From a virus, in IMG/VR virus record IMGVR_UViG_3300045988_012292, positions 1 through 43,135 of that record: a stretch of 43,135 bases of DNA. One strand, written 5' to 3'. The stretch's first letter is position 1. Every line of letters starts with the position of its first letter. This document shows positions 2,551 to 3,592 of this stretch, one piece after another. The notes below the pieces were generated by a model. That model did no database searches and was not told the DNA's origin. It worked only from the letters and a program-made list of their open reading frames with translations. The position numbers were made by a program, and so were the translations under genes.

Positions 2551-2640
2551 GCAACCCCGCTTTCCGTAGTCTCTCCACGCTCTTACACCGCTTCTTCGCG
2601 TCCGCAGTGTAGGCGTCGCGGCTCCGTTCAACTTCTCTCA
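2551..2640 (-). repeat. Junction repeat copy B (precedes the radical-SAM start; has no start codon of its own)
   Basis: Encodes ..REVERSRDAYTADAKKRCKSVERLRKAGLLK-TGA in the +1 frame relative to the methyltransferase, whose own stop (2628-2630) lies inside the repeat. Confidence 0.85.
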
Positions 2641-3392
2641 CGTCTTTTCTCCCTCTGCAATTCTTCCGCCAATGCCTTGAAAATCGGATATGCCTGCTGC
2701 GGCACTACCGCGTTTCCGAGGCATTTAAGTCTGTCCACCTGATTGGGAATCCCATGAGCCACTCCATAAGGGCGGGGTTCGACTTCCCACCGCTTCCACA
2801 GGTCAGGTTTTTCCGCTCCTCCTCCGTGACGACCCCCGCGTCTCTCAGTGCCACCATCTGCCGGAAGTTGTGTGTTCCGCCGCACAGCGGCGCGCCCGTC
2901 GTTGGCCGCGGCCACGATAAAGATTCTCTCTCCCTTGTGCAGTCCGCCGACATCCCAAGCCGCAGAACTGTAAGCCCTTGCTTCGTAGCCGACGCCTTGC
3001 AGTTCGGAAAGGATTCCCGCAAGCGCAATTCGAACAAGTCCAGAAACGTTTTCACCGACAACGCAACGCGGGCGCAGCTCGGTGATAACTCGGAGCATCT
3101 CCGGCCAGAGGTATCGATCATCCCCTTTGCCCTTTTGCTTTCCAGCCACGGAGAAGGGCTGGCATGGGAATCCGCCGGAAATAACGTCAACTGTTCGTAG
3201 GCCTGTCCTCTCATAAAAACTCTCCTTCGTCAAAGTCCGGATGTCACGCCAGCGCGGCACATCCGGCCAGTGCTTTTCCAGCACTTTTGTTGGGTAATCT
3301 GCAAATTCGCATTGCCCAACGGTTGTAAATCCTGCCCATTTCGCAGCAAGATCAAGTCCGCCGATACCCGAAAACAAACTCAGATGCGTCAT
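2628..3392 (-). CDS. DNA (cytosine-5) methyltransferase
   Basis: Motif I LFSGIGG, motif IV GGFPCQPFS, motif VI GENV, motif VIII GERIFIVA, and EPRPYGVAHGIPNQVDRLKCLGNAVVPQ (motifs IX/X). 254 aa. Confidence 0.9.
   Translation of the reverse strand: MTHLSLFSGIGGLDLAAKWAGFTTVGQCEFADYPTKVLEKHWPDVPRWRDIRTLTKESFYERTGLRTVDVISGGFPCQPFSVAGKQKGKGDDRYLWPEMLRVITELRPRCVVGENVSGLVRIALAGILSELQGVGYEARAYSSAAWDVGGLHKGERIFIVAAANDGRAAVRRNTQLPADGGTERRGGRHGGGAEKPDLWKRWEVEPRPYGVAHGIPNQVDRLKCLGNAVVPQQAYPIFKALAEELQREKRRERS
2705..3214 (-). CDS. Nested alternative-frame ORF (169 codons) inside the methyltransferase gene; WPxP / EWLMGFPxxWT-like sequence
   Basis: ATG 3212-3214 has AAGGAG (3222-3227) exactly 7 nt upstream. 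It reads MRGQAYEQLTLFPADSHASPSPW..TSGRRCSEL..WPRPTTGAPLCGG..NPALMEWLMGFPIRWTDL. Expression is unproven. Confidence 0.4.
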   Translation of the reverse strand: MRGQAYEQLTLFPADSHASPSPWLESKRAKGMIDTSGRRCSELSPSCARVALSVKTFLDLFELRLRESFPNCKASATKQGLTVLRLGMSADCTRERESLSWPRPTTGAPLCGGTHNFRQMVALRDAGVVTEEERKNLTCGSGGKSNPALMEWLMGFPIRWTDLNASETR

Positions 3393-3592
3393 TTCAGCAG
3401 CCCCATTCTTTTCAATCTCGCTACACTCCGTGACCGCTTTTCCGCGTCCGCAGTGTAGGCGTCGCGGCTCCGCTCAACTTCTCTCGCCCGATATTCCGCC
3501 TGTTTTGCTTCCTCGTATTCCAGATACGGCGCGCACCTGGCGTGACATTCCGCTGACCGCCCCGGACAGTCCCTCTCACACGGCGGCTTCAC
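3389..3592 (-). CDS. Cys-rich small protein, junction-repeat family copy C
   Basis: MKPPCERDCPGRSAECHARCAPY.. then AREVERSRDAYTADAEKRSRSVARLKRMGLLK. Its TGA overlaps the methyltransferase ATG. Confidence 0.75.
   Translation of the reverse strand: MKPPCERDCPGRSAECHARCAPYLEYEEAKQAEYRAREVERSRDAYTADAEKRSRSVARLKRMGLLK
3393..3487 (-). repeat. Junction repeat copy C (3' end of gene 3389..3592; precedes the methyltransferase start)
   Basis: cgcgtccgcagtgtaggcgtcgcggctccg(c/t)tcaacttctctc is near-identical to copy B. The catttcagca(g/a)cccc start-codon context is also shared with B. Confidence 0.8.

Follow-up and report, generated by a model that had tools for sequence, protein, structure and literature searches.

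A probable two-polypeptide DNA (cytosine-5) methyltransferase with a nested +1-frame gene in a phage genome

Introduction

M.EcoHK31I of Escherichia coli HK31 (YGGCCR) is described as a methyltransferase that requires two polypeptides (Lee, Kam and Shaw 1995, as summarised in PMC2836561 and PMC3404938). According to these summaries, beta is encoded entirely within the alpha gene in a different frame; alpha has motifs I-VIII and X together with what is predicted to be the target-recognition domain (TRD), while motif IX is on beta. The same two sources state that the first 42 residues of beta are dispensable and that internal Met codons can start it. M.AquI of Agmenellum quadruplicatum (CYCGRG) is a natural two-polypeptide cytosine-5 (C5) methyltransferase, split in the variable region after motif VIII (PMC3404938). 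Here we analyse a C5-methyltransferase locus in a 43,135-nucleotide stretch of viral DNA (IMG/VR virus record IMGVR_UViG_3300045988_012292, positions 1 to 43,135; hereafter the window), in which a second open reading frame (ORF) lies out of frame inside the methyltransferase gene. We found that the overlap is real but partitioned, only one frame being under amino-acid selection at almost every position, and that the locus probably belongs to the M.EcoHK31I type, with a DNA (cytosine-5) methyltransferase made of two polypeptides.

Selection on the two overlapping frames

An earlier examination of this DNA without database searches (the sequence-only reading) had noted the nested 169-codon ORF, and we recovered both ORFs on the minus strand. 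The alpha ORF (frame A, 2628..3392, 254 codons) encodes a C5-methyltransferase large-domain subunit, and the beta ORF (frame B, 2705..3214, 169 codons) lies wholly inside it in the +1 frame, with the codon register B1=A2, B2=A3 and B3=A1 of the following codon. All peptide strings quoted in the sequence-only reading were present, as was the Shine-Dalgarno element AAGGAG, which it had placed 7 nucleotides (nt) before the ATG at 3212-3214 and which we located at 3222-3227. Its statement that frame A carries the full C5-methyltransferase motif series needs correction: motifs I, IV, VI, VIII and X are in frame A, and motif IX is missing from it.

Along frame A we find motif I (FSGIGG, 3357..3374), which binds S-adenosylmethionine (AdoMet) and is invariant among homologues, motif IV (GGFPCQPFS, 3150..3176) with the catalytic Cys, whose B reading ADSHASPSP is unselected, and motif VI (GENV, 3045..3056). 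Selection passes from A to B at the 3' end of motif VIII (GERIFIVA, 2910..2933), at the overlap of IVA in frame A with SWP in frame B. Motif VIII is followed by a passenger linker (AANDGR...GVAHGIPNQVD, 2733..2909, residues 162-220), open but with unselected residues, and by motif X (RLKCLGNAVVPQ, 2697..2732), placed by hhalign on Dcm motif X (FGNSVVVP), at which selection is back in frame A. Beta begins with its own passenger (2915..3214, residues 1-100), also open and unselected, and continues with the selected region (2726..2914, residues 101-163), a TRD-like module (WPRPTTGAPLCGGTHNF...) plus the motif IX equivalent (NPALMEWLMGFPIRWTDL, 2726..2779). The selected stretch spans about 63 codons, WPRPTT...EWLMGFPIRWTDL; we read it as a putative TRD with motif IX. 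Frame B includes the peptide SNPALMEWLMGFPIR, and the frame A linker contains the tryptic peptide NTQLPADGGTER.

Ratios of non-synonymous to synonymous differences per site (pN/pS) were computed by pooled Nei-Gojobori counts on a gap-free alignment of 32 distinct sequences of the window's TRD type. From motif IV to motif VIII, pN/pS was 0.51 in frame A and 0.98 in frame B; in the linker after motif VIII the values were 1.71 and 0.24, over PDLW..WTD 0.63 and 0.33, and after the stop of B 0.43 and 1.51. In a sliding profile the most variable codon position was A3 up to KGERIFIV, A1 (equal to B3) from IFIVAAAN/SLSWPRPT through NQVDRL/IRWTDL, and A3 again at RLKCLGNA. The same two flips were seen in an independent subfamily with another TRD and a motif IX-X spacing of 116 nt (21 loci, 19 of them from bacterial genomes and two viral). 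The path of selection therefore runs in frame A through motifs I-VIII, in frame B for about 63 codons and in frame A again at motif X, with sharp switches.

The sequence-only reading had argued that the frame B motifs demand specific wobble bases in frame A; consistently, nucleotide diversity (pi) at A3 collapses to 0.00-0.30 where B reads WPRPTT..WTDL, including the bases under EWLMGFP, compared to 0.4-0.55 elsewhere. The stretch of frame A that it called low-complexity is the passenger linker with the pN/pS of 1.71. It had offered three explanations: dual coding, frameshift isoforms, or a frameshift relic. Dual coding survives in that the evidence supports the use of the same DNA by two ORFs; in the strong sense, with both frames selected at the same positions, it is not the case. 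The relic is rejected, since hundreds of relatives keep frame B open and show purifying selection on it.

Some of the motifs are shadows of the other frame. The frame B strings LFPxDSxAS and SGxxCxEL (or MTVTSGRKC), cited earlier as evidence for B, vary just as the A wobble bases permit, with P, H, L and R all found at one site, and are by-products of conserved catalytic sequence in alpha (the DDRYLWPE stretch and motif IV) that say nothing of conservation in B. The reverse is seen downstream: EPxxGRVAxGxPxRVDRL of frame A is fully predicted by reading LNPxWVEWLMGFPxGWTDL of frame B one base earlier, its variable residues (H/N/D/Y, P/S, I/V/L/F) being those set by B third positions, and GVAHGIPNQVD is the -1-frame shadow of B motif IX. 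Likewise, the SETP-type tails of beta merely shadow the LGNA of motif X.

Both frames are kept open

We compared 41 lineages of less than 80% nucleotide identity with 300 simulations in which synonymous codons were resampled. Frame A was free of stops over the B-selected region in all 41 lineages (5.4 expected, at most 12 in any simulation). Frame B was free of stops over 88 codons from motif IV in 37 of the 41 (7.1 expected, at most 15 simulated). The third (+2) frame, used as a control, had 4.49 stops per locus over the B-selected region against 4.35 simulated, and 4.88 against 4.94 over the 88 codons from motif IV.

Start of the inner gene

In the clade of the window, an ATG 38 nt before motif IV, with a GGAG-type element ahead of it, is kept while the overlapping frame A residues vary (Y, H, N, D, F). 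Wherever Y, H, N or D stands at this place, its codon is NAT and a G follows; an F there yields TTG. Among the loci listed, two (L042 and L050) have a Y/H/N-type codon ending in C instead of T, with loss of the NTG; both are frameshifted loci. The ATG at 3214 behind AAGGAG is the best candidate for the beta start. Two other starts were considered and rejected: Met88 (2951-2953) and a start just before WPRP are unconserved in close relatives, and at the latter place the window has no start codon.

Distribution of the layout

Searching with frame A, we found 80 IMG/VR loci, most of them with motifs I, IV and X in frame 0 and with WPTP and EWLMG[FY]P in frame +1. As a rule EWLMGFP precedes LGNAV by exactly 44 nt; in one subfamily the spacing is 116 nt. 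Fourteen loci missed by our first pattern were inspected by eye and had +1-frame variants of the motif IX string, such as FVEEMMGFPKNWT and YVEQLMGYPIGWT. With relaxed patterns, 103 of 124 classifiable viral loci had the layout. Among loci from bacterial genomes (one genome per species), 62 of 80 combined a +1-frame motif IX with a motif X in frame 0, most of the others being truncated; in none of the 80 did the two motifs share frame 0. Of 41 loci with the window's TRD type, 35 gave the segment in register, and the distance from motif IV to motif IX was exactly 412 nt in 27 of the 29 where it could be measured. The +1-frame strings WP[TR]P and EW[LM]MG[FY]P were kept even in relatives as distant as about 36-45% alpha identity.

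Among the hosts, Oscillospiraceae and other Clostridia are the closest; across bacterial genomes the layout was found in Bacillota, Bacteroidota, Actinomycetota, Acidobacteria and Proteobacteria, and it was present as well in the cultured phages Paenibacillus phage Lily, Mycobacterium phage Zerg and Lactobacillus phage Lc-Nu. The layout is common to hundreds of phage and prophage genes, with a conserved inner gene. The broader statement, that a large clade (Clostridia, lactobacilli, Paenibacillus, mycobacteria, Bacteroidota and others) obligatorily nests the recognition module and motif IX in the +1 frame, has in our judgement about an even chance of being right. The literature that we searched did not describe the layout as general for phage methylases, which does not disprove that such a description exists elsewhere. 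The GenBank record of Lily (L125, KP296792.1, 37980-38471) lists LILY_63 as "g62 internal gene" inside its C5-methyltransferase gene, named "DNA methyltransferase" in RefSeq; we found no paper that discusses this nested ORF.

The N-terminal half of alpha can be near-identical between loci that have quite different beta modules, which suggests swapping of modules on beta. Several proteins (P0205, P0209, P0210, P0217) and loci (L019, L029, L080) have tandem frame B modules, each ending in NPxxxEWLMG[FY]; these recall the tandem target-recognition domains of multispecific Bacillus phage methylases.

When a hybrid A-B-A sequence was used as query, the matches were frame-A-type proteins (about 251-254 residues) and shorter fusions of the alpha N-terminus to frame B, ending in ...EWLMGFPIGWTDL. 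Two fusion loci differ from the window by single bases, the difference in L001 being in a G6 run, and in both of them the frame A C-terminus and motif X are still recognisable downstream of the fusion. Since the fusions have at least six different junction positions, they are independent indel variants. In the unbiased locus sets they make up 15 of 124 loci. We therefore do not take them for the real form of the enzyme: their top rank was due to the hybrid query, and with their six or more junctions they all lose motif X. We also discarded the idea of a canonical methylase broken by two compensating indels or sequencing errors, given that the same layout occurs in nearly all relatives, in independent assemblies and in cultured phages. 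Many wrong-frame products are present in public databases, as alpha-to-beta fusions and one beta-to-alpha fusion (P0200); the entries are P0001, P0003-P0008, P0013, P0023, P0025, P0027, P0030 and P0200, together with phrog_1008.

Poly-G tracts of 7-11 bases recur in the variable region of related genes, at +379 and at about +501 to +510 nt from motif IV, both in frameshifted loci (L021, L025, L042, L045, L049) and in intact ones (L010, L022, L026, L019, L029, L082). At +379, G7 and G10 are found in intact two-frame loci and G8 and G9 in broken ones. At +501 to +510 the correlation of length with state fails, G9 being found in intact L029 and in broken L042 and L049. The tracts look like phase-variable switching of both subunits at once, the alternative being homopolymer assembly error. 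The window has no poly-G tract of this kind.

Family assignment and structure models

The sequence-only reading had proposed profile searches with both frames. Frame A matched Pfam PF00145 (E=1.3e-35, 123.8 bits, cut-off 22), with the match limited to alpha residues 1-167 (profile positions 1-166 of 324), and TIGR00675 (105.4 bits, cut-off 100.65), again with its N-terminal half only; it also matched phrog_363. The solved structures of M.HhaI and M.HaeIII match alpha residues 4-162, i.e., only up to motif VIII. No match in Pfam, NCBIfam or the Protein Data Bank (PDB) was found for the hybrid C-terminus or for a profile of 39 B sequences. The same holds for frame B itself. The sequence-only reading had named such an outcome as a refutation, but it tells what the libraries contain and does not count against the gene. 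A tblastn search of GenBank phages with the 71-residue TRD-IX segment gave zero matches; the window's TRD type is known only from metagenomes.

Frame B matches phrog_1008 ("DNA methyltransferase", E=1.4e-12) over its residues 4-107, a part that is only a shadow of alpha motifs. Most likely phrog_1008 is itself made of B-frame ORFs, and we did not use it as evidence of function because this would be circular. Proteins of B-type ORFs, standalone or in fusions, form 1416 clusters at 50% identity, and the names among those listed are only "hypothetical protein". Many of these ORFs start in the databases at the position homologous to the beta ATG.

A hybrid B-to-A profile aligned in order with E. 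coli Dcm 401-451, from RLTPRECARLMGF (motif IX) through FGNSVVVP (motif X). A pure B profile aligned with motif IX alone (Dcm 401-413), and a pure A profile with motif X alone. Frame B NPALMEWLMGFP pairs with Dcm RLTPRECARLMGF in a short and weak alignment. Despite the low scores, the aligned positions are exactly the canonical ones. AlphaFold2 models were built from shallow alignments and were kept out of fold searches. In the alpha model, of low confidence overall, residues 166-214 have no secondary structure and a predicted local distance difference test score (pLDDT) of about 30; the models support no claim beyond a disordered linker.

Two-subunit model and alternatives

We favour a two-subunit enzyme because both frames are open beyond their selected parts, selection runs A-B-A, and the layout is kept across relatives. 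In this model, alpha would be the catalytic and AdoMet-binding large domain, with motifs I-VIII and then X, joined by a linker of about 59 residues whose sequence would be indifferent as long as it stays open. Beta would be translated independently off the same mRNA, most likely from the ATG at 3214; its first 100 residues would be an unconstrained leader overlapping the alpha catalytic core, and its last 63 or so the target-recognition module with motif IX. Most likely, then, the inner gene supplies the DNA-recognition part of a two-piece enzyme. Docking of beta on alpha would rebuild the canonical order I-VIII / TRD-IX / X, and the enzyme may methylate phage DNA, at a recognition sequence set by beta, as an orphan, anti-restriction methylase.

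Several observations weigh against this model. Across all lineages the ATG at -38 is found in 16 of 42 and an NTG in 21 of 42, only a moderate signal for the beta start, and other B-frame ATGs are by-products of the alpha DD and ENV motifs. An unconstrained leader of 100 residues is unusual. Sequence and profile searches of Pfam, NCBIfam and PDB with frame B were empty; the alignment to Dcm is short and weak (best score 27.5, probability 25%), and the AlphaFold2 models were poor, with a mean pLDDT of 54 for the natural fusion P0001 and 52 for alpha. The TRD-like module is placed on beta by selection, whereas in the M.EcoHK31I literature the predicted TRD is on alpha, and the likeness to that enzyme is one of published architecture.

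A single polypeptide could instead be made by two programmed frameshifts, one of +1 where motif VIII ends and one of -1 following WTDL, giving the same order I-VIII / TRD-IX / X. The selected frame follows precisely such a path, with sharp hand-offs that leave neither overlap nor gap, and the hybrid sequence aligns in order to Dcm motifs IX and X. However, neither hand-off in the window shows a slippery heptamer, a homopolymer or an in-frame stop, and relatives vary in their bases at these places (CTTAAAT in the window, CTTAGAT in L001). The features of a programmed-frameshift gene, a conserved slippery or stimulatory element and a zero frame closed downstream, are absent. Such a chain would need neither an open frame A over the B-selected region (41/41) nor an open frame B for about 90 codons upstream (37/41). 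Two translated ORFs are favoured over ribosomal frameshifting since both frames are open in their unselected parts, which only the two-ORF model needs. To our knowledge there is no precedent for two efficient and opposite frameshifts in one gene, and we consider this explanation very unlikely.

It is also unlikely, if a little less so, that alpha works alone and that the nested ORF makes no obligatory subunit, its product having an accessory or regulatory role or being an isoform of alternative specificity that arises by indels or phase variation. This would account for the database proteins in which the alpha N-terminus runs on into frame B, at six or more different junctions, and for the poly-G tracts at recurrent sites in relatives, which measure 7 and 10 bases in intact loci and 8 and 9 in frameshifted ones. 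Yet alpha lacks motif IX and has an unselected, low-complexity linker at the place expected for the TRD; the fusions lose motif X, are a minority (15/124) and ranked high through the hybrid query, and the window junctions have no homopolymer. As for frame B being a non-functional by-product, either a chance open frame in DNA of 56% G+C filled with frame A shadows or a frameshift relic, it would fit its first 100 residues, which are shadows of alpha motifs IV-VIII (pN/pS 0.98), and the lack of a Pfam model. It is already contradicted by the C-terminal 63 codons, where B is selected and A is the shadow (EPxxGRVAxGxPxRVDRL of frame A deriving from B read one base earlier), and by a frame B open and conserved from Clostridia phages to mycobacteriophages; we regard it as extremely improbable.

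Gene neighbourhood

The methylase gene is bracketed by a 97-nt direct repeat (2543-2639 and 3389-3485, 80% identity, spacing 846 nt), which is context and lies outside the enzyme. Its upstream copy forms the 3' end of a small Cys-rich ORF (3389-3592). In its downstream copy, the last 32 or so codons of the Cys-rich ORF recur (about 70% identical), as does the ATGA stop/start overlap with the next gene (1686-2546). Because the downstream copy repeats both the end of the Cys-rich ORF and the ATGA junction, the methylase looks like a cassette inserted at a gene junction, with duplication of the translational-coupling junction. The sequence-only reading had remarked that a repeat copy follows the TAG of frame B in the same frame; the repeat exists, but the link in frame looks coincidental, as relatives differ there.

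Downstream of the methylase, on the minus strand, are a 286-residue protein without Pfam match (1686-2546), with a CxxxCxxC motif (CTKECWFC) typical of radical S-adenosylmethionine enzymes, and a PAPS-reductase-domain protein (626-1516; PF01507, E=2.6e-17). Together with the methylase, these two genes may form a DNA-modification module. No restriction nuclease was identified among the flanking ORFs, whose Pfam results were no match, PAPS_reduct or DUF1064 (four neighbours had no match at all), and the phage context suggests an orphan methylase. An antisense ORF of 148 codons on the plus strand (2754-3200) also overlaps the methylase gene; given the 56% G+C of the DNA, it is probably a chance ORF.

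Significance

If the two-subunit model is true, the annotation of a common phage methylase family is systematically incomplete, with the specificity subunit uncalled or named "hypothetical". Prediction of specificity from the annotated protein would be meaningless, its motif VIII-X region being a passenger. If the model also holds across the clade, the annotated "variable region" and the EP..RVA.G.P.RVDRL "motif" are shadows of untranslated sense, without function, and it is beta that exchanges its specificity modules, some of them tandem, with alpha needing only to stay open. In that case the TRD would also be relocated to beta, contrary to what is assumed for M.EcoHK31I, and among nested gene pairs on one strand in prokaryotic viruses the family would be one of the largest and oldest. 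The family is frequent in prophages of gut Clostridia and in mycobacteriophages, and bears on phage anti-restriction and epigenetic host range. Protein databases and family libraries contain motif shadows and frameshift fusions that stem from it. The locus is also an unusually clean example of overlapping genes, with sharp hand-offs, two passengers kept open through stop avoidance alone, and enough diverged relatives for quantitative study.

Comparison with known systems

The catalytic core is that of the monomeric enzymes M.HhaI, M.HaeIII and Dcm (PF00145), and the A-B-A reading gives their order of motifs I-VIII, TRD, IX and X. Unlike these C5-methyltransferases, which consist of one frame and one chain, the locus has its TRD and motif IX in the +1 frame. 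As in prfB, dnaX and the phage tail chaperone G/GT, the selected frame changes along one mRNA; in contrast to them, a slippery site or stimulator is absent, the frames are open past the switch points, and there are two switches. The M.AquI alpha and beta genes are consecutive and not nested, whereas here beta is nested inside alpha and motif X stays on alpha.

M.EcoHK31I is the closest system. As in that enzyme, the alpha ORF encloses the whole of the beta ORF in a different frame, and motifs I-VIII and X are on alpha with motif IX on the second ORF; the dispensable N-terminus of M.EcoHK31I beta fits the unconstrained leader found here. Unlike M.EcoHK31I, the gene described here is probably an orphan phage gene, and its beta has 169 residues instead of 117 and starts upstream of motif IV. 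The need for two polypeptides is experimental for M.EcoHK31I and is predicted here from sequence. Every architectural feature of the EcoHK31I type that sequence can test appears to be present at this locus. The mechanism has been known since its 1995 precedent, and what is of interest here is how broad the clade is and how cleanly selection is divided between the two frames.

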